A DNA stretch of 58,841 nucleotides. Origin: a virus. Taxonomy: Duplodnaviria > Heunggongvirae > Uroviricota > Caudoviricetes. The stretch is from IMG/VR virus record IMGVR_UViG_3300023371_000069; one strand, given 5' to 3'. How positions within the stretch are numbered: position 1 is the first letter of the stretch; every line of letters begins with the position of its first letter. The notes below the pieces were generated by a model. It was given only the letters and a program-made list of their open reading frames with translations, was not told the origin of the DNA and made no database searches. A program made the translations under genes and the position numbers. This document shows, piece by piece, positions 29,650-51,361 of the stretch.

Positions 29650-30366
29650 ATGGTAGCAAAATCTTTTCAGAGTATGAAACAGTTGGGCGAGCCTTTCTGC
29701 GAAAAAGGTAAGATGTATGTAAATGTTCAGAATGAAAAGTCCGGCACTGTTCGTAAGGTTCGTTGGTATACTGAAGCTGAGTACGCTAAAATGTATGGCG
29801 AAAAAGTAGATGCTCCTGCAAAAGTTTTCAAGACTCAGAAGCAGGTTCTCGGCTTTGAGAATGGCTATGTAACTATCTTCAAGGGTGATACATATGCTAA
29901 CCTGGAATGGTTCCAGAAGTCCATCGCAAGATACTGTAAGTGGTGGGGCTGGTACATTGTATCTACTGAAGCAGTTCCTTTCGACCTGCCTGCTGGCCTT
30001 GAGCCTATTGAGCTAAAGTGGGAACTGGTTGGTGAAGAAGAAGGTTGTCTGAAGCCTGATGCAGATGTTAAGTCTGCGGTTGAGTCTATCCTGTATGACA
30101 AGGGCGATTCTACTTTCCAGGGCACTGTAGGTGAAAGACTTGACCTTGAGGTCGAAGTTATCGTTGCTCATAAGCGTGATGGCTACTATGGTGAGCAGAC
30201 TATTCACTATATGGTTGATGCTGCTGGCAATCAGTATCTGTGGAGCACTGCTTCCAAGAGTTGGGAAGTTGGCGATAAGCGTCATATTAAGGGTACTGTA
30301 AAAGACCATAAGGTCATTCGCAATGTGGAAACTACTGTCCTTACTCGCTGTTCTTTGGTGAAGTAA
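29650..30366 (+). CDS. hypothetical protein (possible ssDNA-binding/OB-fold protein)
   Basis: ATG has GAGGAGG upstream. Function unclear. Confidence 0.4.
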   Translation: MVAKSFQSMKQLGEPFCEKGKMYVNVQNEKSGTVRKVRWYTEAEYAKMYGEKVDAPAKVFKTQKQVLGFENGYVTIFKGDTYANLEWFQKSIARYCKWWGWYIVSTEAVPFDLPAGLEPIELKWELVGEEEGCLKPDADVKSAVESILYDKGDSTFQGTVGERLDLEVEVIVAHKRDGYYGEQTIHYMVDAAGNQYLWSTASKSWEVGDKRHIKGTVKDHKVIRNVETTVLTRCSLVK

Positions 30367-30399
30367 GGACAGCCAGCCACCTGGCGAAAAGAGTTCTCT

Positions 30400-30428
30400 T
30401 TGATTTTTATAAAAAAATATGATATAAT
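30400..30428 (+). promoter_or_regulatory. class 2 promoter cassette
   Basis: Cassette consensus, followed by the ACAGCAA motif. Confidence 0.6.
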
Positions 30429-30470
30429 ATATATGTAAGATAAAGAAAGACATTAACAGCAATTTCAATT

Positions 30471-30560
30471 TGCCTGTCACGCCGGGGGTTGCAGGTTCGA
30501 GTCCTGCCTGGGTCGCCACATGGCCCAGTAGCTCAACTGGTTAGAGCGACGTTATGTAAT
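30471..30560 (+). other. permuted tRNA-like element: 3' part (anticodon loop CTGTCAC, T-arm, acceptor 3' strand, CCA) placed directly upstream of a matching 5' part (acceptor 5' strand and D-arm)
   Basis: GCAGGTTCGAGTCCTGC T-arm, then CTGGGTCGCCA. 4 nt later comes GGCCCAGTAGCTCAACTGGTTAGAGC. The acceptor strands are complementary. Confidence 0.4.
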
Positions 30561-30716
30561 ATGTCTTGTATCTTGACCGACAGCAGATGGAGTCGTAAAA
30601 CTGGCTAGTGAGGTTGTGGGCAGGTAATCCAAAATGACAAAACCTATCCCCCTGGGAGTTTGCGGTCTCGCCAGAATAATATCCAAAACCGCATCACATT
30701 TGAAAGGATTGATACT

Positions 30717-30986
30717 ATGTGTAAGAATGTAGATTTCATTGATATGTCTTGGGACGAGCTGGAGGCTCTGGAAAAGGCTATCCACTTTGAAAAGATGCAT
30801 CGTAAGGAAAAGCGTTTCAATGAGCTGGCGAAGGCTGCGGCCGAGGCTCTGACTGCTCTGAAAGATGAGTATCCTTATGTGGAGCTGACTTTCGAAGCTC
30901 ATTGCGAAGACTGCGGCGAAAGCACCGAAGTAAACCTGTTTGATTACTTCAAACACTTCGGAGCGGGTCATTTCTCTATGGGGTAA
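30717..30986 (+). CDS. hypothetical protein
   Basis: ATG follows aaaggattgatact. Confidence 0.45.
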   Translation: MCKNVDFIDMSWDELEALEKAIHFEKMHRKEKRFNELAKAAAEALTALKDEYPYVELTFEAHCEDCGESTEVNLFDYFKHFGAGHFSMG

Positions 30987-31315
30987 TGCGTATGAGTTGG
31001 TTTTGTGATGCTCATCGCGCTGAGCATAATGAGTGCGACCACAATAATCACGGCGTTCACAGCCATTGTGAATTTGGTCTGTTTGCACCGGACAGACATA
31101 CTTCAATAAACAATCTGGCATTTTCTGCCTACGCATATCATCAGACTTGCATTGATGATTATGTTGAAAGGCTTGCGGCAGCTGATGACCCGAATGACAG
31201 TGCAACGCAGGCAAATCTGCTATATGCGGTAGGTCTAAGTCCAGATGCTTTGACCTCCGATGATATAGAATATATCGAGAGAGAGGTAAGTAAAAGATAT
31301 GCCGACAGGTTCTAA
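30986..31315 (+). CDS. His/Cys-rich hypothetical protein
   Basis: Track ORF. Confidence 0.45.
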   Translation: MRMSWFCDAHRAEHNECDHNNHGVHSHCEFGLFAPDRHTSINNLAFSAYAYHQTCIDDYVERLAAADDPNDSATQANLLYAVGLSPDALTSDDIEYIEREVSKRYADRF

Positions 31316-32588
31316 ACTCTATATGAGTTGGTGGGATTTTTGTGGCTATCTATCAGATTTTGAAGATTTCGTCTATGATGGTGTGTTTCATAAGATGGAT
31401 TACCATATGTGGCGAAAGCTGAAATACAGCAGAGATAATGAAACTCAAGTTATCATTGAAAAGTGCGGCGATTCCTTTGTCGTGATTATTGGTCACGAAG
31501 ATGAATATCATCGCTTTTGTCGTGGTGATGAAAGTTTTGGCGACTTTCTGTTTGAAAATCTGATTGATGTCAAGGAATATGACCACGACTGGAATTATTA
31601 TAATATGCCTTTGAGTAATGAACTCGAGGTGCCTATTGATGCAACGGTACAATGCACCTCCAGTAGTGTATATCCTGTTAAGAATTATAAACTGGATATT
31701 GCAGCCATTGAGTCTGCAAAAAATATCGCTATTGATTGCGGCGAGGCTCTAAAGCATTCTTTGGCAATCACAAAAGATAAGCTGGCAGACATTGGTATTT
31801 CTGCTATTGCGGCAGATACCGGTCCCACACTTTCTTGCGTAATCGACACCAAGGTCGATAAAGCAGAGTTTGATAAAAGACTGGACGACTTGACCTCCAA
31901 GGTTGAGAATGTCTTGAATAAATATGAAAATAAAAAGGAGAATTCTACTATGAAGGGTTTCAATTTTGACTTCGGTCCTATGAATAACAATGTCGTCCGT
32001 ATGTCTGTTTACGGTATGGCTGTGAAAAATAAGGTCGGTACTTGGGTGTCTTATGATGCCAAGGCTGGCGAGATTATGGACGTCGATGTGTTCAACTTCG
32101 AGGGTTCCAAGTTCATGTATAAGATGCCTGTGGCTATCAATGATGTTGCTGTTGGCGATATCATCGTTCATATGAGCGTTCCTATGTTCGTTGTTGGCAA
32201 GGCTGAGGACGGTAAGGCTGTCGTTGCAGTCGACCCTGTTTCTGGCGAGCGTAAGGAGATTATGCTGACTAAGAGCCCCTTCGGCTTCAATTTCGTTACC
32301 AAGGTTGTCAACTTCCTGGGCAATGCTTTCAATGCAGATGCCAATAATCCCTTTGGTAATCTGGGTCTGATGATGATGCTGTCTGAGGATGGCAATGGTG
32401 TGAAGGATATGCTGCCTCTGATGCTGATGGCTAATGGTGGCAACATCGATATGTCCAACCCTCTGATGATGTATGCTCTGATGAGCGGTGACAGTAAGAT
32501 GGGTGATATGCTTCCCTTTATGCTGATGATGAACGCTAATAAGCCCGCTGGTGCTCATGAGTGCCACTGCGGTGAGCATCACGAGTAA
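31299..32588 (+). CDS. hypothetical protein with a Met-rich C-terminal region and HECHCGEHHE tail
   Basis: Track ORF of 429 aa. Confidence 0.5.
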   Translation: MPTGSKLYMSWWDFCGYLSDFEDFVYDGVFHKMDYHMWRKLKYSRDNETQVIIEKCGDSFVVIIGHEDEYHRFCRGDESFGDFLFENLIDVKEYDHDWNYYNMPLSNELEVPIDATVQCTSSSVYPVKNYKLDIAAIESAKNIAIDCGEALKHSLAITKDKLADIGISAIAADTGPTLSCVIDTKVDKAEFDKRLDDLTSKVENVLNKYENKKENSTMKGFNFDFGPMNNNVVRMSVYGMAVKNKVGTWVSYDAKAGEIMDVDVFNFEGSKFMYKMPVAINDVAVGDIIVHMSVPMFVVGKAEDGKAVVAVDPVSGERKEIMLTKSPFGFNFVTKVVNFLGNAFNADANNPFGNLGLMMMLSEDGNGVKDMLPLMLMANGGNIDMSNPLMMYALMSGDSKMGDMLPFMLMMNANKPAGAHECHCGEHHE

Positions 32589-32628
32589 GGAGCCTTAGGG
32601 CTCCCCTCGTGGGAGATAAAAATCTTTC

Positions 32629-32657
32629 TTGATTTTTTATAAAAAATATGTTATAAT
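32629..32657 (+). promoter_or_regulatory. class 2 promoter cassette
   Basis: Cassette consensus, preceded by the GGAGCCTTAGGGCTCC hairpin. Confidence 0.6.
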
Positions 32658-32696
32658 ATATATGTAAGATAAAGAAAGAGATGAGAGGTAGCCGAT

Positions 32697-34412
32697 ATGA
32701 GTATATTTGAAAGGCTCCCGGACGAAGATAAGTCACAATTTAAGTCTTATATTTCTCACTACGGTGATGAAGGTAACGGAACTCTTCCGTTAGACAAAAT
32801 GGGATATTTCCTTCGTTTTTGGGACGAAAATAAAGAACCGTTCTTCCGGGCGTTCGGAGAGCAGTTTATCGTAAAAAAGGAAGTTCGTTTAGTTAAGCCA
32901 AAAGATGAACTGTCCAATGATATGTATTCCGCTTTAAACAACGGACACCAGATGATTCGTAACTTTATTTCTGCCTATAAGGATGCTGCTCGACATATCG
33001 GCAACGAGATGGGCGATATTGATATGACTTATCGCCTCAAGTCCTTTGTTGAAGATTGGGATATGTTGGTTGACAATATTTATCCCGGTCCTGGTTTCAC
33101 AATCCCTGGCAAGTTTACTAAGGATGGACGACCTCTTGTGGTTAATGCTAACTGCAAAGCTGTTAAAATGCTTGGTAAGATTGCGGCGGCTCTTAATGTA
33201 GAACTCCCCATCATGTACTGCAGCGGTTGTGGCTGCTACTACACTGATGGCGAAACAGAGTGCTGCGGGCCGTTAGAAAAGTCTTCTGGATATGAGCTGT
33301 TCCGACAGGCACATTCTCAAGTTCTAAACCAGAAGCAGATTAAAGGTAATCTTTGCCTGTCTATTCACCCGCTTGATTTTATCACTATGAGTGATAACAA
33401 CTGCGGCTGGACCTCTTGTATGAGCTGGATGGACGAACCTGGCGATTACAGACTGGGAACCATCGAAATGATGAACTCTCCTTGTGTCATCGTGGCATAT
33501 GTTGAGTCCAAGGAGCCTATGTGGACTCCCGGCGGTAACTGGAATAGTAAGCGTTGGCGTCAGCTTTACATCGTAACAAGAGAAGTCATTCTTGGAAATC
33601 GTCAGTATCCTTACATCAGCGATGATTTGCAGGGTGTAGCGATTAGATGGATTCGAGATTTGATGACTCAGATTCCGGGATATGGACCTTATCCCGAAGA
33701 AACTATTCAGCTGAAAAATGACAGCTGGAACACTGTCAAGGATAAACACATTCGTTTCAACTTCTACTGTAATTATATGTACAATGATGTCTATGATTAT
33801 CGTTTAGCATATGTGGCAGACCAGAAGATTGAAGATGATGACCATTATTCTTGCAACTTCTCTGGACCTGCAGTTTGCACTGGCTGCGGCGATATTATTG
33901 AGCTTGACGAGGTCGATGCTCATGTTGTACAGTGCAGAGCGTGTGACGGACACTGGCGTTGCGATTTCTGCGGCGACTGGCACAGCTCATATGATGAGTC
34001 CTATACAGTTGACGACGATTATATCGCCTGCGACTGGTGTTACCACAATGAACTGAGTGAATGTGAGGTTTGCGGCGACCATCATAGAAATGATTGCGTT
34101 GCACACATTTATCTTCAGTTTGCAGATACTGAAAACGAAGAAATTCGTGATGGATTTAATTACAACTTCTATGTATCTATCTGTGAAGATTGTTTGAACC
34201 ATCCGGAAGAGTATGAACCTCTATTCGGTCAGTTGTATGATGTTAGAGATAGCTGGGGTAATAGACGCCAAGCATTTGACATCCGCAATGTTACTGAGGA
34301 CGGCTTCAATGCCGGCAATTTGAGTCGACGCACCATCGAGTGGCTAAAGCAAATGCAAGCCACAAAGAGCGATGAAGAGCGTATTGACCTACTCGGGAAA
34401 ATCGTCTATTGA
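32697..34412 (+). CDS. large Cys-rich protein (multi-Zn-finger C-terminus), paralogue of 38033..39439
   Basis: 571 aa. The N-terminal half aligns with 38033..39439 (..IKGNLCLSIHPLDF..), and the C-terminus has many CxxC pairs. Confidence 0.5.
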   Translation: MSIFERLPDEDKSQFKSYISHYGDEGNGTLPLDKMGYFLRFWDENKEPFFRAFGEQFIVKKEVRLVKPKDELSNDMYSALNNGHQMIRNFISAYKDAARHIGNEMGDIDMTYRLKSFVEDWDMLVDNIYPGPGFTIPGKFTKDGRPLVVNANCKAVKMLGKIAAALNVELPIMYCSGCGCYYTDGETECCGPLEKSSGYELFRQAHSQVLNQKQIKGNLCLSIHPLDFITMSDNNCGWTSCMSWMDEPGDYRLGTIEMMNSPCVIVAYVESKEPMWTPGGNWNSKRWRQLYIVTREVILGNRQYPYISDDLQGVAIRWIRDLMTQIPGYGPYPEETIQLKNDSWNTVKDKHIRFNFYCNYMYNDVYDYRLAYVADQKIEDDDHYSCNFSGPAVCTGCGDIIELDEVDAHVVQCRACDGHWRCDFCGDWHSSYDESYTVDDDYIACDWCYHNELSECEVCGDHHRNDCVAHIYLQFADTENEEIRDGFNYNFYVSICEDCLNHPEEYEPLFGQLYDVRDSWGNRRQAFDIRNVTEDGFNAGNLSRRTIEWLKQMQATKSDEERIDLLGKIVY

Positions 34413-34437
34413 TTTTTTCAAAAAAATATGATATAAT
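34409..34437 (+). promoter_or_regulatory. class 2 promoter cassette
   Basis: Cassette consensus. Confidence 0.6.
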
Positions 34438-34505
34438 ATATATGTAAGGTAAAGAAAGAAAGCCTTACGAAATAAATAAATTTTTGAAAGGTATAGGTGC
34501 AAATT

Positions 34506-34910
34506 ATGGAAAAGATTACTAAGAGAGAGATGTTCGAGGCTATCAAGGAGACTTTCGAGACTGGTTCTTGCAAGTTCGATGCTGCCACTGTGATGGCATT
34601 CTGCGACAAGGAGATTGCTTCCTTGGATTCCAAGGCTGCTAAGGCTAAGGAGCGTGCCGCTGCTAAGAAGGCTGAGGCCGATGTTCTCATGGACCAGGTC
34701 CGTGACGCTTTGACTGGCGAGTTCCAGACTATCGCTGACATCGCCGCTGCTGTTGCTGAGGTCAACGCAGACGCTACTGTGTCTAAGGTTACTTACCGCT
34801 TGACTAAGCTGGTTGAGGCTGGTGACGCAGAGAAGACTGATGTCACTGTTCCTGGCGTTGATGGCGCCAAGGCTCGTAAGGTAAAGGCTTTCCGCGCAGT
34901 GGAAGCCTGA
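34506..34910 (+). CDS. Ala/Lys-rich acidic protein
   Basis: ATG at 34506, in frame within track ORF 34497..34910. Confidence 0.45.
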   Translation: MEKITKREMFEAIKETFETGSCKFDAATVMAFCDKEIASLDSKAAKAKERAAAKKAEADVLMDQVRDALTGEFQTIADIAAAVAEVNADATVSKVTYRLTKLVEAGDAEKTDVTVPGVDGAKARKVKAFRAVEA

Positions 34911-34982
34911 GCCTAACTCAGATAGCTTAATTCACGGGGGCGGGACTTCCGCCCCCATTCTTTTTGAGAGAGGAGGAGTATT

Positions 34983-36065
34983 ATGTTAAGCGAATTTATG
35001 TTAAAAGTGAGAGACTTGCACGAGGAAATCAGACAGGTAGCTGAACTTCTGAAACCTCAAGAGATGAAAGACCGTATGGCTTATCTCGAAGCTAAGTTCA
35101 ACCACTCAACCTGGAATGAAATTCCAGAAGAGGAGCTGAAGGAATACTCTCGCCTCAAAAAGAAATATGATTTATATTTCGGTATCTGGAATATGTATGA
35201 TGACCTTAAAACTTTAACTGAGTATGCAATAGAGGAAGGCGAAGTCAACTATTTGCATGAATTTGAGATGGATTATAATTACCTCGTCGAGGAAATCCAA
35301 AAGCTCAAGTTAGAGTTAATGTTCACAGGTAAGTACGATTCCTGCAACGCCATTTTAAATATTCATTCTGGTGCCGGTGGTAAAGAAGCACAAGACTGGA
35401 CCAGAATGTTACTTCAGATGTATGCGGCCTGGGCTAGTAATCATGATTTTCAATTCAATATTTTGGATTGGCAAGATGGTGAAGATAGCTCAGTCGTGAA
35501 AAGTGTTTCGGTAGAAATCAGAGGAGAGAATGTATACGGCTTGCTGAACGCTGAGAATGGCGTCCATCGTTTGGTTCGCGTTTCTCCCTTTGATTCTCAA
35601 AATAGACGCCATACTTCATTCGCAGCAGTCGAAGTAATGCCTGAAATCGAGGCAGATAACTCTGTGGAACTCGATATGAAAGATGTTAGAGTTGATACTT
35701 TCCGTTCAAGCGGAAAAGGCGGTCAGCACGTCAATAAGACTGAATCTGCGATTAGATTAACACATATTCCTACTGGCATTGTGGTGGGGTGCCAGCAAGA
35801 GCGAAGTCAACATCAGAACAAAGAAAAAGCCATGAAGATGCTTATCTCAAGGCTGGTTGCTATTAAAGAAAAAGAACACTATGACAACTTGTCTGAAATT
35901 CAGGGCGAGCAGAGTCGAATCGAATGGGGCAACCAAATTCGTTCTTATGTCTTTATGCCATATCAAATGGTTAAAGACCACAGGACTAACCACCAAACTT
36001 CTAATATTGACGCAGTGATGCGTGGAGATATAGATGAATTCATTTTCAAGAGTCTCGCTGAATAA
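34983..36065 (+). CDS. prfB: peptide chain release factor 2 homologue
   Basis: RF2 'anticodon' motif SPF (RVSPFDSQNRRHTSFA). GGQ catalytic motif (RSSGKGGQHVNKTESAIRLTHIPTGIV). About 360 aa. SD GAGGAGG. Confidence 0.85.
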   Translation: MLSEFMLKVRDLHEEIRQVAELLKPQEMKDRMAYLEAKFNHSTWNEIPEEELKEYSRLKKKYDLYFGIWNMYDDLKTLTEYAIEEGEVNYLHEFEMDYNYLVEEIQKLKLELMFTGKYDSCNAILNIHSGAGGKEAQDWTRMLLQMYAAWASNHDFQFNILDWQDGEDSSVVKSVSVEIRGENVYGLLNAENGVHRLVRVSPFDSQNRRHTSFAAVEVMPEIEADNSVELDMKDVRVDTFRSSGKGGQHVNKTESAIRLTHIPTGIVVGCQQERSQHQNKEKAMKMLISRLVAIKEKEHYDNLSEIQGEQSRIEWGNQIRSYVFMPYQMVKDHRTNHQTSNIDAVMRGDIDEFIFKSLAE

Positions 36066-36184
36066 GCGAGGCTCTTTTTTTGTTTTGAAACCAATGTTTC
36101 ATGAACCTGCTCCGGCCGGCATGGGGTGTGGGGACCGACAAGCCCAAAACGAAAAGGCCTCCAACTAATTTTTTGAGCGAATGG

Positions 36185-36213
36185 TTGATAAACATGAAAA
36201 AATTTTGTATAAT
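36185..36213 (+). promoter_or_regulatory. sigma70-like promoter
   Basis: TTGATAaacatgaaaaaatttTGTATAAT. Confidence 0.5.
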
Positions 36214-36234
36214 ATATTATAAAGGAGTGATTAT

Positions 36235-37056
36235 ATGCGTTTTTGTGTAAGTGGCAGACAGCCATATTCAGTTATTAAAATTGCTGACGAAATCAAGTTT
36301 GCATATGCTGATAAGGATAGAATTCTTGACCTCGTTGAAAAGTACCCTGAAAAGACAGTAATTCTTGATGTTCCCGGCCATGAAGGCGATTGGAAGCTAT
36401 GGGAAATGTATAGTGAGAAGTTTGCGGAATTCTATATCGCTCTTCATGATTTAAGTAGAGTTGCTGAATTTAATCAAGCTGGTATCAAATGGTATTGGCC
36501 TTATCCAATTACATCTTATTATGAGTTATCAATGATTGTTAATTTGCATCCAAGTTATCTGATGATTGGTCCTCCGCTAACATTTGATTTGGATAAGATT
36601 GTTCCCCATACATATGATGATAGTGTCGAGGAAAATGCAACACCAATTCCTTTGCGAATGGTGGTTAATGTTGCGCATCCTGCATATCTCCCAACCAATG
36701 GGACACACGGTATGTGCGGCCAGTGGGTGCGCCCGGAAGATGCTAACTTATATGCAACCCGCATCAACTGTTTTGAGTTTGATGAATGCGCTACCCTAAA
36801 GGAAGAAGAGGTTCTATTGAATACTTATAAGTCTGGCACATGGCCCGGTAACTTGAATCTAATTATTAAAAAGTTAGATTTCAACGTTGATAATCGCGCA
36901 ATTCCAGAAGAATTGGGAGAAAGACGAATGACTTGCGGCCAACGATGCTGGTCTGGCTCAGGATGTCATTTGTGTGTGAGCGCGTTTAGGTTTGCCGACC
37001 AGATTCGAAAAGAGCACCTTCGTCGCAACCAGAAGGACGATATTGACAATAATTAA
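36235..37056 (+). CDS. hypothetical protein
   Basis: Track ORF of 273 aa. Confidence 0.5.
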   Translation: MRFCVSGRQPYSVIKIADEIKFAYADKDRILDLVEKYPEKTVILDVPGHEGDWKLWEMYSEKFAEFYIALHDLSRVAEFNQAGIKWYWPYPITSYYELSMIVNLHPSYLMIGPPLTFDLDKIVPHTYDDSVEENATPIPLRMVVNVAHPAYLPTNGTHGMCGQWVRPEDANLYATRINCFEFDECATLKEEEVLLNTYKSGTWPGNLNLIIKKLDFNVDNRAIPEELGERRMTCGQRCWSGSGCHLCVSAFRFADQIRKEHLRRNQKDDIDNN

Positions 37057-37100: not shown

Positions 37101-38084
37101 ATGCGAGTTCTAAGTGATAGTGATTACAAGCTATTTGAACGCTTAGTATCTTTGAGTCAAAAAGAATTAAAGAAGGCTATGGCTCAGTATCTAAAAGCAA
37201 AATATGATAAGGTAATCTTCACGAAAGATTATCTGGTTGCTGTTGGAGATATTCCGATTGCACTTGTTGCTCACTTAGACACTGTGTACAAGACTCCTGT
37301 ATCGAATTTATATTATGACCAAAGAAAAGGCGTGTTGTGGAGCCCAGATGGTTTGGGTGCCGATGACCGAGCAGGCGTATTTGCAATTTTGAAAATATTG
37401 CAAGATGGATATAGACCCTCGGTGATTTTTACAACCGATGAAGAGAAGGGTGGATTGGGTGCAAGTACTCTTGCGATGCGAGATTGTCCCATTCCAAACT
37501 TAAAATATATGATTGAACTTGACCGACGTGGTAGTAATGATTGCGTATTTTACGATTGTTATTGCCCTGAATTTGTTGATTATGTTGAATCATTCGGTTT
37601 CTGTGAGAAATATGGTTCATTCTCTGATATTAGTTTTTTAATGGGAGAATGGTTAGTTTGTGGTGTTAACTTGTCTGTTGGCTATGAGGAAGAACACTCA
37701 TATGCTGAACATCTATATGTTGGACCACTATTTGATACAATTAAGAAAGTTAAAAAGATGCTCGATGAAAAGGACATTCCTGACTTCGAGTATGATGAAT
37801 TGAATATTGCGGCTTCTGCTTGGTGGAAGACTAGCGATACTGTATATGGACAGCATTGTAGTAAATGCAAAAAGCTGTTCATGGAAGAAGAATTATTCCC
37901 AGTAAAGGGTCTTGACGGCAAAAAGAAATATTATTGCCCCGATTGTATTGTCGGAAATGTAAGTTGGTGCAATATCTGCCAAGAGGCATATGAAATCGCA
38001 GACCCTGCAGATGATAAAAAAATGTGTAAGGAGTGTGCGGAAGGCCTATGTACGAAGACATCAGAGAGCAGTTTAAATCAGTAA
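37101..38084 (+). CDS. M28/M20-family metallopeptidase-like protein with a C-terminal Zn-ribbon
   Basis: HLD.., GADDRAG and TTDEEKG motifs are typical of co-catalytic Zn exopeptidases. Confidence 0.45.
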   Translation: MRVLSDSDYKLFERLVSLSQKELKKAMAQYLKAKYDKVIFTKDYLVAVGDIPIALVAHLDTVYKTPVSNLYYDQRKGVLWSPDGLGADDRAGVFAILKILQDGYRPSVIFTTDEEKGGLGASTLAMRDCPIPNLKYMIELDRRGSNDCVFYDCYCPEFVDYVESFGFCEKYGSFSDISFLMGEWLVCGVNLSVGYEEEHSYAEHLYVGPLFDTIKKVKKMLDEKDIPDFEYDELNIAASAWWKTSDTVYGQHCSKCKKLFMEEELFPVKGLDGKKKYYCPDCIVGNVSWCNICQEAYEIADPADDKKMCKECAEGLCTKTSESSLNQ

Positions 38085-39439
38085 TTAGTTTTTCTCAAAA
38101 TATACCTGACCCCAATGTTGATTATCTTTTTAGAGAGTGGGAAGCTAATAAAGCGAAGTTTATTGAGCGATTTGGTGGACTCATCTATGAATGGTCTGAA
38201 CCGATTGAATTTACTTTGGATGAAAACCAGAAGCGAATGAGAGCAATGGAATTTGCGACTACTGTTTCTGATACTTTTAATAATCCTAACTTGGCTGAAT
38301 TTATAGATGAAAATTTGGATGGTTTCTTTGAAAATAAAGTCATTAAGACCTGCGGTGAGAAGGGTATTCCGACCGGAATGAAATTACTCAAAGCATTCAA
38401 GTATTTTGAGCCTAACAAGGCAGCTTTGAGAAGCATTCAAGATATGGCAAGTAATATTATCCAAGAGAATAAGATTAAGGGAACTTTATGTTTCTCTGTT
38501 CATCCTCTTGATTTTCTGTCCAGTAGTGAGAATACATATAACTGGCGTAGCTGTCATGCACTGGATGGAGAATACCGTGCAGGCAATCTGAGTTATATGG
38601 TTGATAAAACCACCTTTATGGTCTATTTGAAAGGCGCAGATAACCAAAAACTATTTGGGTTCGGTCCAGTAGAATGGAATTCTAAGAAGTGGCGTATGTT
38701 AATTCATGTTGCTGAGAATGATGATATTATGTTTGCTGGACGTCAGTATCCATTTAGTTCTAAAAGCGGTATTGATACCGTATTGAATATTTATAATAAT
38801 CTAATGATTGCAGAAAAGCCTTTTGGATATGGTACTTATAAATATGCAGGATGGCGAGCTGATTACGTAGACTCATATGTTCCATATGACGCAACTTCTA
38901 TGGATGTTACATATGATTTAGCAACTCGTTATTTGGTATATGATAATCAGCTGGTAGATATTAGAAGTATTGTAAAAGAAGGACACAATTGTCTGAATTA
39001 TAACGATATTTTGAAGTCTACTTGTTATAAATATCCTTATTATGCAATTTTCGACCCATATAGTTATCATTCTCTATCTCATCTGTTGGAAAATCCAGTA
39101 GTAGTTGGCGAAGAAGTGCCTTGCCTTCATTGCGGCGATGAGTTAATTAGTAATCCTGAGACTATGCGATGCGATGACTGTGAGCTGGAGTATGGTACTG
39201 AGGAGAATGATGTATATAGTTCTTGTGACTGTTGTGGTGCAAGAATTTATGTAGATGATGCAATTTGCGTTGGAGACGATGGAGATTTAATTTGTGATGC
39301 TTGCTTTCATGCACACGCTTTCGTCTGTGATTGCTGCGGCGGTGTCTACTATGAAGCAGACAAAGTCTTCATCCCCGAAAAAAATGACGAAGAAAATGGC
39401 CGGTGGTATTGCCGCGGCTGCTATGAAGATATGGATTAA
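38033..39439 (+). CDS. large Cys-rich protein, paralogue of 32697..34412
   Basis: 468 aa with a shared N-terminal domain and a C-terminal CxxC cluster. Confidence 0.5.
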   Translation: MCGRPMYEDIREQFKSVISFSQNIPDPNVDYLFREWEANKAKFIERFGGLIYEWSEPIEFTLDENQKRMRAMEFATTVSDTFNNPNLAEFIDENLDGFFENKVIKTCGEKGIPTGMKLLKAFKYFEPNKAALRSIQDMASNIIQENKIKGTLCFSVHPLDFLSSSENTYNWRSCHALDGEYRAGNLSYMVDKTTFMVYLKGADNQKLFGFGPVEWNSKKWRMLIHVAENDDIMFAGRQYPFSSKSGIDTVLNIYNNLMIAEKPFGYGTYKYAGWRADYVDSYVPYDATSMDVTYDLATRYLVYDNQLVDIRSIVKEGHNCLNYNDILKSTCYKYPYYAIFDPYSYHSLSHLLENPVVVGEEVPCLHCGDELISNPETMRCDDCELEYGTEENDVYSSCDCCGARIYVDDAICVGDDGDLICDACFHAHAFVCDCCGGVYYEADKVFIPEKNDEENGRWYCRGCYEDMD

Positions 39440-39515: not shown

Positions 39516-40244
39516 ATGCCTAAAAGCGAAAATTTAGTTGGGCAAGTATTTCATAGATTAACAGTTATTTCCAAAGATGCTGAAGCATCTAAAAAGCATG
39601 GACGTTCTTATTGGCTATGTTAGTGTGAATGTGGAAAATAGAAAGTAATCGCAGGATTGAGTCTAAAAAATGGAGCTACAAAAAGTTGTGGTTGCTTACG
39701 CAATGAACGAGTATTTGAAGCTATTGCAAAAGATGAAGTTGGTAATCATTATGGAAAATTAACTGTTTTATCTATGGATAAAGAACGAGATAGTTTTGGA
39801 CGTATTAAATGGATATGCCAATGTGAATGTGGTAATATAAAATCTATTAGTGGGTCAGATTTGCGAAGTGGTAATACTCAAAGTTGTGGATGTATTTCTC
39901 GAATTTCTCGTGGAGAGCAAAAAATTATTGATATTTTAGAGCAATTTAATATATCATACATTAGAGAATATAAACCAATAAATTTGGGTAATAAAAGATT
40001 TGACTTTGCTATTTTAAATGATAATAATGAAGTAATTCGTTTAATTGAATTCGATGGAGAGCAACATTATAAAGAAAGTAATTGGGAACGAGAAAAGTTA
40101 AGTCGTACCCAAGAATCTGATAAAATTAAAAATCATTATGCTTTAAGTCTATCTATTCCTTTAGTAAGAATTCCATATTGGGAATTAGAAAACTTAAATT
40201 ATAATATGCTATTTTCACAACATTATGAAATAAAAGGAGAATAA
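39516..40244 (+). CDS. putative homing endonuclease (CxC-repeat N-domain plus DUF559/Vsr-like IEFDGEQHY..RIPY C-domain) with 2 in-frame TAG near 39622 and 39640
   Basis: ATG has AGAGGTGAG upstream. The frame continues through ..WLC[TAG]CECGK[TAG]KVIAG.. into track ORF 39657..40244. It is a paralogue of 4355..5118. Start coordinate is +/-1. Confidence 0.5.
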
Positions 40245-40661: not shown

Positions 40662-40705
40662 ATATATGTAAGATAAAGAAAGGCACTTACAGCAAACTAC
40701 AAATT

Positions 40706-40777
40706 TTTGCGATAGTCAAATGGTTAAGACATTACCCTCCTACGGTGAAAGTTGGGGTTCAAATCCCCATTGCAGTT
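40706..40777 (+). tRNA. tRNA-Arg(CCU)-like
   Basis: D-arm, anticodon arm TTACC/CTCCTAC/GGTGA and T-arm TGGGG/TTCAAAT/CCCCA. The acceptor stem has a 1:72 mismatch and two G:U pairs. Confidence 0.4.
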
Positions 40778-40796
40778 AAATTTAGTGCCTTGATAT

Positions 40797-41534: not shown

Positions 41535-41563
41535 TTGATTTTTCAAAAAAAATATGTTATAAT
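41535..41563 (+). promoter_or_regulatory. class 2 promoter cassette
   Basis: Cassette consensus. Confidence 0.6.
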
Positions 41564-41655
41564 ATATATGTAAGGTAAAGAAAGTGATATGCACGAATCG
41601 CTTTCGATTCCATACAACCTTTTCCATTAAAAAGACGGTAACAGCAATTAAACGA

Positions 41656-41745
41656 TTGCTTGGGGTGCCGGAAGTCGCAGGTTCGAGTCCTGCCTCCCGC
41701 TCCGCTTATGCGGGAGTAGTTCAGCTGGATAGAACGCCGTATATC
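41656..41745 (+). other. permuted tRNA-like element (3' part with Pro-like loop TTGGGGT, T-arm and acceptor 3' strand, then the complementary 5' part with D-arm)
   Basis: ..GCAGGTTCGAGTCCTGC CTCCCGC TCC, then GCGGGAG TA GTTC AGCTGGATA GAAC. Confidence 0.4.
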
Positions 41746-42039
41746 GAAAAAATCCCGTCTTGAAAAAGTACCAAGAGGCTGATAAGAAATGGGTTAGCTG
41801 CCAAAGTATTTGATGTGAGGTGCCGGTCTGAGTAGCCGTATTGCCGGATAATAGAGCTACAGCGTTTGAGATGGTCAGCAGCCACCCTTTGTCGTTTGCT
41901 ACAAGAACGAAAGATGATTGGCTCGCCCCTAAGGATTATGGACTTAACAGGTGGGTTAAGGCGGATGGTAAAGTCCAATGCTAGTGTGGGTTTGATAGTT
42001 TCCCTCTCTGCGGAGGAAAAACTAATCAAAAAATCTTTC

Positions 42040-45279: not shown

Positions 45280-45811
45280 TGCCCGAGTAGCTCAGTTGGT
45301 TTAGAGCGCCGCCCTCATATCGAGCAATACCATATTTGTAAAAAGTAATGGATACAAATATTAAAGGAACAATTACAGAATTAAAGTGTAAAACTTACTT
45401 TTTAGAATTAGGTTATATGGTTTCTACACCAGAAAGCCCAGTTCGATATGACTTCATTTTAGATACTGGTAAAGAGTTGCTGAAAATTCAAGTCAAAACC
45501 AGTCATACCGATGGAGAAAAAATTATCTTCAAAACGAGTTCAACTCATATTACCGCAAAAGGAAATACAGTGCATCACTATAAAGATGATGGTATAGATT
45601 ATTTTTGCACTTGGTTTGATAATGAATGTTATTTGGTACCTGTGCAAGATTGCGGAAAAAGTGAAAAATATTTACGATTGATTCCCACTAAAAATGGGCA
45701 AGTCAAAAATATTGCTTTTGCGAAAGACTATGTTGCAAAGGAGGTCTTAGCAAATAAGTGAGCTTGATATGAAGGCGGAGGTCGTGGGTTCGATTCCCAC
45801 CTTTGGTACCA
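45280..45811 (+). tRNA. tRNA-Met(CAU)-like gene interrupted in the anticodon loop by a 454-nt insertion encoding a nuclease
   Basis: 5' part GCCCGAG TA GCTC..GAGC G CCGCC CTCAT (45280-45317). 3' part AA GGCGG AGGTC GTGGG TTCGATT CCCAC CTTTGGT A CCA (45772-45811). The anticodon stem matches across the break, but the acceptor pairing is imperfect. Confidence 0.4.
45348..45761 (+). CDS. Hjc-like PD-(D/E)xK nuclease, putative homing endonuclease (copy 1)
   Basis: Paralogue of 53105..53512 and 56023..56430. Sits inside the split tRNA gene. Confidence 0.5.
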   Translation: MDTNIKGTITELKCKTYFLELGYMVSTPESPVRYDFILDTGKELLKIQVKTSHTDGEKIIFKTSSTHITAKGNTVHHYKDDGIDYFCTWFDNECYLVPVQDCGKSEKYLRLIPTKNGQVKNIAFAKDYVAKEVLANK

Positions 45812-45888
45812 ACCGCTAAGGCGGTTTTCATTTCCTTTCATGTGCGGTCGTGGGGGCTCCGACCGGAAAAACAATCCCCCTTTGATAT

Positions 45889-46043: not shown

Positions 46044-46109
46044 AGGGATAGCACTCCCTTTCTTGACGTGATGTTTTTTAGGCACACACAGCAATATTTT
46101 TCTTTAAGA

Positions 46110-46172
46110 AAAAATTTAGCTCATTTGGTAGAGCAATTGTCTGTTAAACAATGTGTAGTGGGTTCAATTCCC
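46110..46172 (+). tRNA. tRNA-Asn(GUU)-like with an A/T-rich acceptor, possible pseudogene
   Basis: Anticodon arm ATTGT/CTGTTAA/ACAAT. No CCA. Confidence 0.25.
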
Positions 46173-46282
46173 TCAATTCTTTCTTTTGTGCCTAGTCAAA
46201 AGCATCGGCAGACTGAAAATTGGACTGAAAAATTTAATGTGGTCTACTTAAAATTCAATAATAGTAGAAGGAGTTGAGTTTT

Positions 46283-46805: not shown

Positions 46806-47065
46806 CAGTGTGAGAAGTCACTGTTATAAAAACTTCTCAAAAAAGACCGGTAAGCGGGGACCCACATCAACCCAAACAGTTTTTGTCTTGTTGTTTCATA
46901 TTTATGCCTCCTCATATATATAAAGCGGATGTGGCTGCCGGGAACGTACCCTTTCTATATATTCTGAAATATATAGAAACAAAAACTATTTCTGTGGTAG
47001 AGAGTTTTTACATCTAGGCTCGGCTGAGTTTGTTTTTTACTCTACCATTTCTTCATACTTTGTAT

Positions 47066-47155
47066 GGAGAGGTGGGTGAGTGGCTTAAACCAGCTCCCTG
47101 CTAAGGAGCCGACCCGATTTAGGGTCCGAGGGTTCGAATCCCTCCCTCTCCGCCA
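47066..47155 (+). tRNA. tRNA-Ser(GCU), type II
   Basis: Acceptor GGAGAGG/CCTCTCC, loop CTGCTAA, long variable arm, disc G, encoded CCA. Confidence 0.7.
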
Positions 47156-47283
47156 AGAGTAGAGAAGTACAATCTACTTAGTGATGTATAGTGTAGGTAG
47201 GAAAGAACACGCCAAAATGGAGGTCATATGCCAGAGTAGGTAACCCGGACGCCTAAGAAGCTCACCCGGTGCATCACGCATAT

Positions 47284-47371
47284 GGAAGAGTAAGCATAAT
47301 TGGTACTGCCTCGGTCTAGAAAACCGTTCGTCGGCAACGGCGTGCAGGTTCGAGTCCTGTCTCTTCCGCCA
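47284..47371 (+). tRNA. type II tRNA (Ser-like; anticodon AGA?)
   Basis: Acceptor GGAAGAG/CTCTTCC, disc G, long variable arm. Anticodon loop read as CTAGAAA. Confidence 0.4.
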
Positions 47372-47421
47372 ACATCCATATCCCTTTAACATTGATTTTG
47401 ATACGAAAGGTGAGATATGCG

Positions 47422-47568
47422 ATGAGTTTTCCTACAAACTGTTCTACTTGTCAATTCCGCAACCGTTGTGATGCGGCTATGTATACTGACAAGTGTCACT
47501 TCTATGGAAAAGAAGATAAACCACAGAAGTTTAGCTTCAAGCGTTTTTTCTTCAAGTTTTTCGCCTAA
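47422..47568 (+). CDS. small Cys-rich ORF (49 aa)
   Basis: ATG has AAGGTGAG upstream. CSTC..C..C motifs. Between tRNAs. Confidence 0.3.
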   Translation: MSFPTNCSTCQFRNRCDAAMYTDKCHFYGKEDKPQKFSFKRFFFKFFA

Positions 47569-47583
47569 TAAAACTTGTTATAT

Positions 47584-47660
47584 GCTTCCATAGCTCAGTT
47601 GGCCAGAGCAACGCACTAGTAATGCGTAGGTCGTCAGTTCGAATCTGACTGGAAGCTCCA
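47584..47660 (+). tRNA. tRNA-Thr(AGU) (A34)
   Basis: Acceptor GCTTCCA/TGGAAGC, anticodon arm ACGCA/CTAGTAA/TGCGT, encoded CCA. Confidence 0.6.
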
Positions 47661-47663
47661 TAT

Positions 47664-47739
47664 GCGGGGTTAGCTCAGCTGGGAGAGCATATGCCTTACA
47701 AGCATAGGGTCGGCGGTTCGAGCCCGTCACTCCGCACCA
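47664..47739 (+). tRNA. tRNA-Val(UAC)
   Basis: Loop CTTACAA, encoded CCA. Confidence 0.75.
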
Positions 47740-47823
47740 CTCTCCGTAGTAGGTTCATAAACCATACGAAAAAATAACAGGTTTAGACGCACTGAACCTG
47801 CGTCGGCTACGGAGATACCATAT

Positions 47824-47899
47824 GCGGCTGTGGCTCAGTTGGTAGAGCATCTGATTGCCATTCAGAAGGTCGCGGGTTCGAACCCCGTCAGCCGCTCCA
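47824..47899 (+). tRNA. tRNA-Gly(GCC)
   Basis: Acceptor GCGGCTG/CAGCCGC, loop TTGCCAT, encoded CCA. Confidence 0.75.
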
Positions 47900-48013
47900 G
47901 GGTAGTCCGCAAGAATCAAGTGTGAACGAGATGTGACGTCCGCTCTTAGTACCATTTGAGGAACAAAAATGAGGCTATAGTGACAGCGGATACAACTCCT
48001 ACCCGCCAAATAT

Positions 48014-48090
48014 GGTGGCTGTAGTTCAGTTGGTTAGAACGCCAGATTGTGGCTCTGGAGGTCGCGTGTTCGAGTCACGTCAGCCACCCC
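48014..48090 (+). tRNA. tRNA-His(GUG) with an encoded G-1
   Basis: G-1:C73, loop TTGTGGC, encoded CCA. Confidence 0.75.
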
Positions 48091-48180
48091 ATAGACAGAC
48101 ACAGCAAATTTATTTTTTACAAAAACGCTTATTTTGGGTTTAAGAATTGTTACTGTAAATTCTGTCTAGTTTTTTTTTAT

Positions 48181-48257
48181 GCCCCAGTAGCTCAGTTGGA
48201 TAGAGCATCCGGCTTCTACCCGGTCTGTCGGGAGTTCGAGTCTCTCCTGGGGTGCCA
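48181..48257 (+). tRNA. tRNA-Arg(UCU)
   Basis: Loop CTTCTAC, encoded CCA. Confidence 0.75.
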
Positions 48258-48266
48258 ACTATATAT

Positions 48267-48344
48267 GTCCGCTTAGCTCAGTTGGAATAGAGCGCCTGGC
48301 TACGAACCAGGAGGTCGGGAGTTCGAGTCTCTCAGCGGATGCCA
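48267..48344 (+). tRNA. tRNA-Arg(ACG)
   Basis: Loop CTACGAA, encoded CCA. Confidence 0.7.
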
Positions 48345-48359
48345 ACTGAAAAATCTTTT

Positions 48360-48388
48360 TTGATTTTTCTTAAAAAATATGATATAAT
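48360..48388 (+). promoter_or_regulatory. class 2 promoter cassette
   Basis: Cassette consensus. Confidence 0.6.
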
Positions 48389-48502
48389 ATATATGTAAGA
48401 TGAAAAGGATAAAATCCTTTTCAAAGGCTCATACAGCAATTCTAATGTAAATGACCTGTTGCTCAAAATTGGTAATATACAAAAGAATGAGTTTTGAAAT
48501 AA

Positions 48503-48579
48503 CGGAGTATAGCTCAGATGGTTAGAGCACCGTGCTGATAACGCGGGGGTCACTGGTTCGACTCCAGTTACTCCGACCA
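48503..48579 (+). tRNA. tRNA-Ile(GAU)
   Basis: Acceptor CGGAGTA/TACTCCG, loop CTGATAA, encoded CCA. Confidence 0.7.
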
Positions 48580-48606
48580 TATCACCAAGAAAGGAAAAGT
48601 GCAAAC

Positions 48607-49737: not shown

Positions 49738-49742
49738 TTAAC

Positions 49743-49758
49743 GGGGCCTGCGGGCCCC
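49743..49758 (+). terminator. GC hairpin (GGGGCCTGCGGGCCCC)
   Basis: Lies immediately after the ATPase stop codon. Confidence 0.4.
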
Positions 49759-49764
49759 TCATAT

Positions 49765-49842
49765 CCGGGCGTAGCTCAGTTTGGCTAGAGCGCGTGGTTT
49801 GGGACCATGAGGCCGCAGGTTCGAGTCCTGTCGCCCGGACCA
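49765..49842 (+). tRNA. tRNA-Pro(UGG)
   Basis: Acceptor CCGGGCG/CGCCCGG, loop TTTGGGA, encoded CCA. Confidence 0.7.
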
Positions 49843-49988
49843 AAAAACCTCGTCTATGTGGAGGCACGAGCCATTGGCAAACATAGACAAAATTATCTTA
49901 GTAGGTTAGTAGTGAGGTAATCAGCCAATTAAGTCCTCGCTAGACGCGAAAAGATGTGATGGTTGGAGGTTAGCCATCACACATATAT

Positions 49989-50066
49989 CTGGATGCAGCT
50001 CAGTTTGGCTAGAGCGCTACCTTGGGGTGGTAGAGGCCGAAGGTTCAAGTCCTTTCATTCAGACCA
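49989..50066 (+). tRNA. tRNA-Pro(GGG)
   Basis: Loop TTGGGGT, encoded CCA. Confidence 0.65.
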
Positions 50067-50105
50067 TAGACACATACAGCAAATTTATTCTACTAAAGAA
50101 TAATT

Positions 50106-50180: not shown

Positions 50181-50223
50181 GTATTAAATGTCTTTTAGAG
50201 GTGTCTAGCAATTAAATCTTTAT

Positions 50224-50252: not shown

Positions 50253-50284
50253 TATACATAAGATAAAGAAAGGAATTGATAAAG

Positions 50285-51353: not shown

Positions 51354-51361
51354 TCTTTATT

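Follow-up and report, generated by a model that had tools for sequence, protein, structure and literature searches.

The window, by which we mean the whole stretch of 58,841 nucleotides (nt) from the IMG/VR record IMGVR_UViG_3300023371_000069 (Caudoviricetes), is phage DNA in which all genes lie on the plus strand. At five loci, named Y1 to Y5 in window order, it contains tRNA-like elements in which the 3' part of the fold is encoded upstream of the matching 5' part. A first-pass annotation had described these loci as circularly permuted tRNA-like elements with the gene order of permuted tRNA genes, naming tRNA-derived structured RNAs and scars of homing-endonuclease-driven rearrangement as alternatives. 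ARAGORN and the Rfam tRNA model, both run over the window, called no tRNA at any of the five loci.

Five permuted tRNA-like elements

The order of the parts was the same at all five loci: a T arm, the 3' strand of the acceptor stem (7 nt), N-CC(A/G), a loop, the 5' strand of the acceptor stem, U8-R9 and a D arm. The T arm was canonical in every case (a 5-bp stem and the loop TTCGAGT), as was the D arm, which followed the T-R of U8-R9. The acceptor strands were complementary over 7 of 7 pairs in Y1, Y2, Y4 and Y5 and over 6 of 7 pairs in Y3, and the loop joining them measured 7, 9, 8, 8 and 62 nt in Y1 to Y5, respectively. The pattern CAGCAA-N18-45-GGTTCGAGTCC occurred five times in the window, at these loci only, with 0.00 occurrences expected from 100 shuffles, which bears out the recurrent arrangement noticed in the first pass. 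A structural descriptor picked exactly Y1 to Y5; its other, partial matches in the window were tandem tRNA pairs without the motif and without an outer helix.

Each element is enclosed by a 7-bp long-range helix, P1, the sequence of which differs between copies yet stays complementary (7 of 7 pairs at all five loci). NNA-CAGCAA comes after the 5' strand of P1 and a G after the 3' strand, and we refer to this combination as the scaffold. Element coordinates run from outer helix to outer helix, and the annotated features extend 1 nt further to include the G after P1. The positions given in the first pass cover the cores of the elements; the full elements are longer, from 30447-30567 (Y1) to 55775-55969 (Y5). 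An ACAGCAA motif behind a promoter had also been reported for each locus. The motif was found on the 5' side of all five elements, in the form (A/T)CAGCAA, but sigma-70-like promoter matches, which are matches to the consensus only, were present 16-70 nt 5' of Y1, Y2 and Y5 alone.

Y1 (30447-30567, G at 30568, plus strand) is a complete permuted tRNA-like element on the scaffold. It opens with the 5' strand of P1 (AAGACAT, 30447-53), TAA and CAGCAA (30457-62). GC at 30472-73 (tRNA positions 30-31), the Asp-type loop CTGTCAC (30474-80) and GCCGG at 30481-85 (positions 39-43) precede the variable loop. Then come the T arm (30491-30507), the acceptor 3' strand (30508-14), the G-CCA-CAT loop (30515-21), the acceptor 5' strand (30522-28), the D arm (30531-47), ACG at 30549-51 (positions 27-29) and the 3' strand of P1 (ATGTCTT, 30561-67). 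P1 was present in the unconstrained minimum free energy (MFE) structure of Y1. The promoter-like site before Y1 (30400-30428, plus strand; TTGATT-17-(TG)TATAAT) ends 19 nt upstream, and the element lies about 150 nt 5' of an operon. This operon (30717-34412) encodes proteins of 108, 109, 429 and 571 amino acids (aa), for which neither Pfam nor the PDB gave a sequence match; the 571-aa open reading frame (ORF) shares PHROG 18912, of unknown function, with a 468-aa ORF at 38033-39439.

Y2 (41632-41761, G at 41762, plus strand; P1 AAGACGG/CCGTCTT; CAGCAA at 41642-47) carries the Pro-type loop TTGGGGT, a T arm at 41677-93, an acceptor stem of 7 of 7 pairs (41694-41700 with 41710-16, loop TCCGCTTAT) and a D arm, followed by CCG (positions 27-29), which pairs with CGG (positions 41-43). 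Its promoter-like site is at 41535-41563 on the plus strand. Y3 (50067-50207, G at 50208, plus strand; P1 TAGACAC/GTGTCTA; CAGCAA at 50077-82) starts directly after tRNA-Pro (49989-50066) and has its chain break in the variable region. A V hairpin is followed by the T arm (50106-22), an acceptor stem of 6 of 7 pairs (50123-29 with 50138-44), a D arm with a 3-bp stem and then a complete anticodon arm, CTTGT-CTGATAA-ACAAG (GAT, Ile).

Y4 (50767-50874, G at 50875, plus strand; P1 AAGGCAC/GTGCCTT; CAGCAA at 50777-82) follows the stop codon of an ORF and is permuted without an anticodon arm. It consists of the V hairpin CACAC-TTTTT-GTGT, a T arm (50801-17), an acceptor stem (50818-24 with 50833-39, loop GCCATTTT) and a D arm. 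Y5 (55775-55969, G at 55970, plus strand; P1 AAGACAC/GTGTCTT; TCAGCAA at 55784-90) contains the Gly-type loop CTTCCAA with GCCGG, a T arm (55830-46), an acceptor stem of 7 of 7 pairs (55848-54 with 55917-23), G-CCA and a D arm, and its acceptor loop holds a 62-nt insert with two hairpins. The promoter-like site before it (55731-55759, plus strand) matches the consensus at 12 of 12 positions.

Y1, Y2 and Y5 form a complete cloverleaf including the anticodon stem-loop. In these three, ACG or CCG after the D arm pairs with CGG at positions 41-43, and the 7-nt anticodon loop is closed locally by GC pairing with GC (positions 30-31 and 39-40). The chain break therefore falls between positions 29 and 30, within the 5' half of the anticodon stem, and both ends run on from there into the scaffold. 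The anticodon-stem sequence around this junction is conserved (NCG|GC...GC|CGN). When rejoined at 29/30, the anticodon stem had 5 of 5 pairs in Y2 and Y5 and 4 of 5 in Y1. The loops CTGTCAC, TTGGGGT and CTTCCAA followed by GCCGG, which the first pass had pointed out, are present in Y1, Y2 and Y5 and are authentic anticodon loops of tRNA-Asp (C38), tRNA-Pro (G37) and tRNA-Gly; the Pro-type loop is identical to that of the phage's own tRNA-Pro. With Y3, four of the elements have an authentic anticodon arm, in agreement with the earlier remark that such an arm is sometimes present.

These properties are the basis of the first alternative to be weighed, namely that the elements are true permuted tRNA genes, with an intron-bearing tRNA gene at 52631. 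The scaffold would then be intron-like, with an endonuclease cutting at 29|30 and a ligase sealing the ends, and for the permuted genes functional tRNA-Asp, tRNA-Pro, tRNA-Ile and tRNA-Gly would arise once RNase P and RNase Z had opened a circular intermediate at the acceptor loop. We regard this as unlikely. It is favoured by the near-perfect cloverleaves to which Y1, Y2 and Y5 rejoin, with authentic anticodon loops and NCC(A), by the conserved sequence flanking the junction, and by the consideration that a tRNA still bearing the scaffold arm would hardly be workable on the ribosome. ARAGORN also called the rejoined halves of Y1, Y2, Y3 and Y5 tRNA-Asp, tRNA-Pro, tRNA-Ile and tRNA-Gly, but this program is permissive and the un-permutation test was uninformative because many junctions were accepted. 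On the other side, Y4 lacks an anticodon arm altogether, and the position of the break varies (26/27, 29/30, the variable region or the acceptor end).

The scaffold within the tRNA array

ARAGORN found 39 tRNAs in the window, between 40.7 and 58.7 kb. The P1, NNA-CAGCAA and G scaffold was present in 13 copies: the five permuted elements, two tRNAs of ordinary order and six modules with non-tRNA inserts, which are five short hairpins and one insert of 178 nt. P1 paired in all 13 modules and was present in each unconstrained MFE structure. By inspection and folding, the linkers that join the tRNA-like domain to P1 are asymmetric, with NNA-CAGCAA plus 9-20 nt on one side and 9-17 A-rich nt on the other. 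Linkers that vary in length (9-20 nt) would provide no ruler for cleavage sites, which argues against splicing at the scaffold, and splicing also leaves unexplained why the same scaffold holds non-tRNA inserts.

The first of the two ordinary-order tRNAs, tRNA-Arg(CCT) at 40706-40777, is the sole CCT tRNA of the window and is enclosed at its acceptor end by a scaffold at 40680-40791 (G at 40792, plus strand; AAGGCAC-TTA-CAGCAA ... GTGCCTT-G), with a promoter-like site at 40633-61. The second is an AU-rich tRNA-Asn(GTT)-like sequence (46110-46183), the acceptor stem of which is almost entirely A/U; it is likewise enclosed at the acceptor end (46079-46194, G at 46195, plus strand; TAGGCAC-ACA-CAGCAA ... 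GTGCCTA-G).

All scaffold modules with non-tRNA inserts are also on the plus strand. A module of 77 nt with a hairpin insert is located at 48092-48168 (G at 48169; P1 TAGACAG/CTGTCTA), and one of 72 nt at 48424-48495 (G at 48496; P1 AAGGCTC/GAGTTTT; promoter-like site 48360-88). Further scaffold-only modules of 67, 91 and 92 nt were found at 54451-54517 (G at 54518; P1 AAGACTC/GAGTCTT; promoter-like site 54394-422), 56663-56753 (G at 56754; P1 AAGGCTC/GAGCCTT; promoter-like site 56617-45) and 57762-57853 (G at 57854; P1 AAGGCAC/GTGCCTT). The module with the 178-nt insert runs from 57528 to 57705 (G at 57706; P1 GAGAGCC/GGCTCTC).

A fourteenth copy of the scaffold lies in a tRNA-Leu(TAA)-like gene at 52631-52766 on the plus strand (annotated to 52769), in which the 7-bp acceptor stem is open and ACCA is encoded. 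It scored 33.3 bits over 136 nt with the Rfam tRNA model and was of the unpermuted type by the descriptor. Its insert of about 52 nt, on the 5' side of the anticodon stem, presents the scaffold as a closed hairpin (GTGTCTT-GGTCT-AAAACGC-TAA-CAGCAA). This gene is an exact circular permutation of the Y1 type.

The tRNA-Leu(TAA)-like gene starts 7 nt 3' of a full-length ROOL RNA (52033-52624, 312.6 bits), which lies inside the array. Two adjacent suppressor tRNAs with the anticodon CTA, the second of 97 nt, are located at 56434-56605, and a release-factor gene (PCRF+RF-1) at 34983-36065; taken together, these suggest recoding of TAG. Reading through TAG changes the ORFs of the window hardly at all. 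A partial match to OLE RNA at 58280-58363 (model positions 439-592 only; 53.5 bits, the gathering score being 50) may reflect a common substructure or chance. Free-standing homing-endonuclease-like ORFs, one HNH and two PD-(D/E)XK_5, occur within the array of tRNAs and non-coding RNAs at 39657-40244, 45348-45761 and 53105-53512. Directly 3' of the PD-(D/E)XK (PF11645) ORF at 45348-45761 is a lone tRNA 3' fragment (45772-45826) with a variable loop, T arm, acceptor 3' strand and ACCA at 45772-45812, followed by a terminator-like hairpin; it gave weak matches to the Rfam model of the tmRNA 3' end and to the covariance model R1 described below.

The same phage was present in several metagenomes, and close relatives were found on contigs of approximately 190-210 kb. 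Megablast of window positions 30300-36300 against cultured phages gave no match.

Relatives in other phages and a Ro60-like neighbour

IMG/VR was scanned with ACAGCAA...GGTTCGAGTCC and the hits were filtered with the structural descriptor. This yielded 50 further distinct permuted elements, with 41 different P1 sequences among them; the first pass had called for such a comparison with related phages. An alignment of the five window elements alone (MAFFT) was too poor to model, and a covariance model, R1, was built from an alignment of 44 elements. Y1, Y2 and Y4, which belong to its seed, scored 106.7, 91.7 and 86.3 bits, and Y3 and Y5, outside the seed, scored 63.2 and 66.7 bits. The scaffold-only module at 48092-48168 reached 30 bits. 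The next matches in the window after Y1 to Y5, at 46 bits or less, were tandem tRNA pairs.

Covariation was assessed on 111 distinct R1 matches from independently chosen loci. In this set 87% of the cells were paired versus 61% after shuffling, and double changes were seen in 22 of the 23 pairs. The covariation score was 0.52, compared with 0.17 for shuffled alignments (0 of 500 shuffles reached 0.52) and 0.06-0.11 for slid controls; these figures lean towards structure because the alignment was fitted to the R1 model. A-CAGCAA and the G after P1 were each conserved in at least 87% of the sequences. NCCA was found in only about 24% of the closed acceptor loops family-wide.

Among all fetched viral loci there were 348 distinct CAGCAA sites followed by a T arm, of which 123 were unpermuted, 55 permuted and none both; by our own estimate, chance would give about 1 unpermuted and about 0.4 permuted. 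An acceptor loop of up to 25 nt was counted as permuted in this classification. The rule avoids cases such as L108, which stood in our first element list as permuted but is probably a pair of neighbouring unpermuted genes. The presence of both topologies, family-wide as well as in the window, is in line with permuted tRNA genes, since it mirrors the relationship of intron-bearing and permuted genes in Cyanidioschyzon merolae, whereas the scarcity of NCCA in the closed loops speaks against them.

The same data bear on a further explanation, that the elements are functionless relics of tandem tRNA genes, in which the 3' half of one gene and the 5' half of the next were left behind by deletions or by homing-endonuclease rearrangement. 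Tandem tRNA pairs are a known class of false positives for the YrlA model, and same-isoacceptor pairs in the window (Met-Met, Sup-Sup, Gln-Gln) reached 36-46 bits with R1. The homing-endonuclease-like ORFs within the array and the lone tRNA 3' fragment at 45772-45812 fit this explanation, and an origin of YrlA from dimeric tRNAs has been proposed (10.1101/312249). Relics would not be expected, however, to have mutually complementary acceptor strands joined by loops of 7-9 nt, nor a covarying P1 of their own that closes each element. The halves do not closely match the tRNAs of the phage itself, covariation is strong, and 55 independent permuted homologues occur in other phages versus about 0.4 by chance. 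Covariation and conservation thus largely refute this explanation, which we consider very improbable, and they contradict the rearrangement scars proposed in the first pass; a dimeric-tRNA origin may nevertheless be historically true, though the elements are not decaying relics. Recent duplication of phage tRNAs as the source of the halves was dismissed, as the comparison gave generic tRNA similarity only. An intact tandem (dimeric) tRNA pair was likewise rejected: no complete tRNA overlaps the five loci by ARAGORN or Rfam, and the outer halves are replaced by the scaffold.

When the ORFs at 40 element-bearing loci were clustered, the neighbour that recurred most, at 15 loci, was an approximately 470-aa protein that has the Pfam domains DUF2828 and DUF7788 (a vWA domain) and a weak match to vWA_Ro60. 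At 10 or more loci the DUF2828 gene was within 300 nt of an element and on the same strand. In the reverse test, 80 loci were chosen only by the presence of the DUF2828+vWA protein. They contained 193 scaffolds on the strand of the gene versus 6 on the opposite strand, with 5-21 for scrambled-motif controls; a scaffold was at most 1.5 kb from the gene in 64 of the 80 loci, mostly just upstream, and all 156 R1 matches were on the strand of the gene. Some scaffolds sit directly 5' of the DUF2828 start codon, a position that splicing likewise leaves unexplained.

A six-frame hmmsearch with the DUF2828 profile found no homologue inside the window. The 429-, 571- and 468-aa ORFs downstream of Y1 were considered as hidden Ro60 or DUF2828 proteins and rejected, as they had no Pfam or PDB sequence match and an hhalign probability below 1%. 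Contigs that are 99.98-100% identical to window positions 46947-58841 (11.9 kb) run past the end of the window. One of these, L203 (99.98% identical over the 11.9 kb), shows that the same phage carries a DUF2828 gene (L203:15693-16643), which lies some 3.8 kb further on, behind the same type of promoter and on the same strand. Relatives that are 95-96% identical to the DUF2828 protein of this strain are 500 aa long and include the vWA domain. A second reading frame resembling a C-terminus (...MMERLNSERYAVIH*) lies about 330 nt 3' of the strain's DUF2828 gene (L203:15693-17000), which suggests a rearrangement at this gene. Two genes, one EcoRI-methylase-like and one GmrSD_N+HNH, lie just 5' of it (L203:13108-15518).

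An AlphaFold2 model of one of the 500-aa relatives (predicted local distance difference test score 74, predicted template modelling score 0.59) was compared with the PDB by Foldseek. The best eight matches were all Ro60 or Rsr over their full length, with a best E value of 6e-6 and template modelling scores of only 0.31-0.42; proteins that consist only of a vWA domain ranked after them and were aligned over approximately 150 residues. The modelled protein has a helical-repeat ring domain followed by a vWA domain that bears the MIDAS motif, as in Ro60/TROVE. Because Foldseek ranks Ro60 and Rsr first, the DUF2828+vWA proteins are, on the predicted fold, Ro60-like.

The strand-specific clustering with a Ro60-like gene is also relevant to the possibility that the elements are processing, punctuation or leader signals, in which the tRNA-like fold only recruits RNase P and RNase Z for cutting early polycistronic transcripts or the leaders of mRNAs, and the scaffold is a stabilising clamp with neither a dedicated protein partner nor a function in trans. 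Y1, Y2 and Y5 start 16-70 nt after promoter-like sites, and about 150 nt separate Y1 from the operon that follows it; acceptor stems of 7 bp with NCC(A) serve RNase P well as determinants (PMC4201824); and the elements are situated within a tRNA array that needs processing anyway. The ordinary tRNAs of the array already give processing sites, however, and the near-invariant ACAGCAA and G, the scaffold-only modules and the clustering itself would be left unexplained. In our estimation such a role is quite unlikely.

Y RNAs, permuted tRNA genes and the phage elements

YrlA is a tRNA-mimicking Y RNA bound by the bacterial Ro60 protein Rsr (Chen et al. 2014, PMC4201824). It is made up of a V hairpin, a T arm, a closed acceptor-like stem and a D arm, all enclosed by a stem in which its 5' and 3' ends pair and which contains GNCGAA(N)G; its genes share a strand with a TROVE gene no more than about 4 kb away and are known from more than 250 bacteria and 22 phages (PMC4201824). 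In phages, YrlA copies adjoin TROVE genes, as for the Ro60 of phiLo (PMC12135203). YrlA has been likened to circularly permuted tRNAs in which the acceptor stem is closed (Wang et al. 2018, 10.1101/312249). The permuted tRNA-like order is therefore an already known architecture.

Apart from Y3, which gave no match, the loci all matched the Rfam YrlA model (RF02553), and three did so over the whole model: Y2 scored 48.2 bits (E 9e-8), Y1 41.9 bits (E 6e-6), Y5 26.3 bits (E 0.2) and Y4 25.7 bits (E 0.3). The Y1 alignment produced by cmscan spans model positions 1-114. Elements beside DUF2828 genes in other phages also matched YrlA, with 32-50 bits. The order of modules is that of YrlA (5' stem strand, V hairpin, T arm, closed acceptor-like stem, D arm, 3' stem strand), the nucleotides of the tRNA tertiary interactions are conserved (T-loop, D-loop and U8-A9), and a stem of the 5' and 3' ends encloses the domain. 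The elements further resemble YrlA in their occurrence in phages, in their position, family-wide, on the same strand as a nearby gene for a Ro60-fold protein, and in the company of simpler, YrlB-like hairpin RNAs on the same scaffold, which parallels the published pairing of YrlA and YrlB.

They differ from YrlA in conserving A-CAGCAA and a 3' G instead of GNCGAA(N)G and in having DUF2828(+DUF7788 vWA), not Pfam TROVE, as the partner. N-CC(A) is encoded, 13 or more scaffold copies per genome are scattered in the tRNA array, and the fold has an unpermuted form as well, in which the acceptor is open and the scaffold forms a hairpin. In architecture and logic the elements are like YrlA, yet they lack the GNCGAA motif and stay under the gathering score of RF02553. 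The alternative of tRNA-derived structured RNAs, put forward in the first pass, comes closer to the evidence than permuted tRNA genes.

The two-piece (permuted) tmRNA offers another comparison. It shares a T arm, acceptor 3' strand and CCA upstream of the acceptor 5' strand, with an intervening loop that is removed by processing; the phage elements differ in having no tag reading frame, pseudoknots or G3:U70 and in possessing a full D arm. A permuted tmRNA was rejected for the five loci, where ARAGORN found no tmRNA and Rfam gave no tmRNA or tmRNA_permuted match, and where the acceptor stems differ per locus. A permuted two-piece tmRNA was seen in the tRNA array of another phage contig that carries DUF2828 (L133:4528-4779; cyano_tmRNA 116 bits, tmRNA_permuted 81 bits).

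Circularly permuted tRNA genes were reportedly described in C. merolae by Soma et al. in 2007. Such genes also occur in some archaea; to our knowledge, no splicing endonuclease of that kind is known in bacteria or phages. The phage elements resemble these genes in that the 3' part is upstream of the 5' part, the leader pairs with the trailer, intron-bearing counterparts are interrupted at the same position, and RNase P and RNase Z would have to cut away the linker on the acceptor side. Unlike them, they have no bulge-helix-bulge that is evident by inspection (no dedicated search was run), the ends forming a 7-bp helix and an ACAGCAA loop instead, and their scaffold also exists without a tRNA part. 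Redundant anticodons, the association with a Ro60-like gene and the absence of an anticodon arm from Y4 set them apart as well. Permuted tRNA genes are touched on in two reviews (PMC4033280, PMC3728597).

No tRNA_int_endo, RtcB or RNA-ligase Pfam match was found among the window ORFs scanned, the rest of the genome of about 200 kb being outside the scan. The anticodons GTC, GGG, GAT and TCC, and TAA of the gene at 52631, all occur in ordinary tRNA genes of the window, although this redundancy test has low power because the ordinary tRNA set of the phage is nearly complete. The order and topology seen in the first pass hold, then, whereas maturation by circularisation is not supported, for six reasons: no bulge-helix-bulge evident by inspection, a scaffold that also holds non-tRNA inserts and ordinary-order tRNAs, rare NCCA, redundant anticodons, the match of the elements to the YrlA covariance model, and the tight linkage of the scaffold to a Ro60-like gene.

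A combination of the two ideas is also improbable, in our judgement: the scaffold could be a protein-recognised, intron-like tag by which the DUF2828 protein recruits cleavage and ligation, so that the unpermuted genes are spliced and Y1, Y2, Y3 and Y5 mature to functional tRNAs via a circle that RNase P and RNase Z open. If true, permuted or protein-spliced tRNA genes would here be seen for the first time outside archaea and eukaryotes. In a weaker version, two-piece mimics opened by RNase P and ending in CCA would be aminoacylated or would act as decoys for host anticodon nucleases.

The best explanation, and on balance a fairly probable one, is that Y1 to Y5 are genes for non-coding RNAs of the Y-RNA type, more precisely for YrlA-like tRNA mimics. 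We favour it because of the fold, the conservation and covariation of the scaffold, the coupling to a Ro60-fold gene, and the presence of that gene in the same phage. The scaffold would be the binding site of the Ro60-like DUF2828 protein, a counterpart of GNCGAA for Rsr, and the tRNA-like domain would be an effector module shown to factors that recognise tRNAs, such as modification enzymes, RNase P, the CCA-adding enzyme, nucleases and repair enzymes. YrlA of Mycobacterium smegmatis, which has a 7-bp acceptor stem like that of the window elements, is cut by RNase P and has CCA added in vivo (PMC4201824). By analogy, the window elements are likely to be opened by RNase P, with the CCA end kept or added, because they combine a 7-bp stem with a discriminator and CC(A). 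The resulting tRNA mimic would consist of two pieces that P1 and the acceptor stem keep joined. The scaffold-only modules may be partners of the YrlB type, and those directly 5' of a DUF2828 start codon might serve as autoregulatory leaders.

Several observations weigh against the assignment to Y RNAs. All YrlA scores of the window elements are below the gathering threshold of 69 bits and are driven by the tRNA-like core, with closing-stem pairs flagged as non-canonical in the Y1 alignment, the sole one printed. GNCGAA(N)G, the defining motif for Rsr binding, is absent from the elements, and ACAGCAA is in a different register. Authentic anticodon loops, as found here, do not occur in published YrlA, and together with anticodon stems that, when rejoined, are perfect in Y2 and Y5 and have 4 of 5 pairs in Y1, they seem to exceed the apparent needs of a decoy scaffold. 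A second helix joining the linker strands is not conserved as a general feature, the observed value (4.7) being similar to that after shuffling (4.4). The DUF2828 gene of the same phage is about 4.8 kb from the nearest scaffold module and 6.7-32 kb from the five elements (Y1 about 32 kb), and in this strain its protein is 316 aa long and without the vWA domain. The counts over the 80 DUF2828 loci are not independent, because many of these loci are close relatives.

Compared with published YrlA, the ACAGCAA scaffold, the DUF2828 partner, the authentic anticodon loops, the encoded NCC(A), the dozen or more copies and the occurrence of both permutations are new. Within the searchable library, literature searches on DUF2828 with Y RNAs, permuted tRNAs in phages and phage tRNA introns retrieved no paper linking DUF2828 to Y RNAs and no prior description of the family.

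If the Y-RNA assignment is true, there is a large and widespread set of phage RNAs that is invisible to Rfam and tRNA finders or is misread as tRNAs with odd insertions, and it would constitute a second Y-RNA system. The DUF2828 family would gain a function as Ro60 paralogues with an RNA recognition motif of their own, and a single phage would carry more than a dozen scaffold-tagged RNAs in its tRNA array. The finding of both circular permutations of the tRNA plus scaffold fold, even within one genome, is a natural experiment on the origin of YrlA-type mimics from tRNA genes. Two questions are thereby made testable: what the tRNA-like module of Y RNAs is for, and whether Ro60-like particles of phages protect, repair or police the phage tRNA supply against host defences that target tRNAs.

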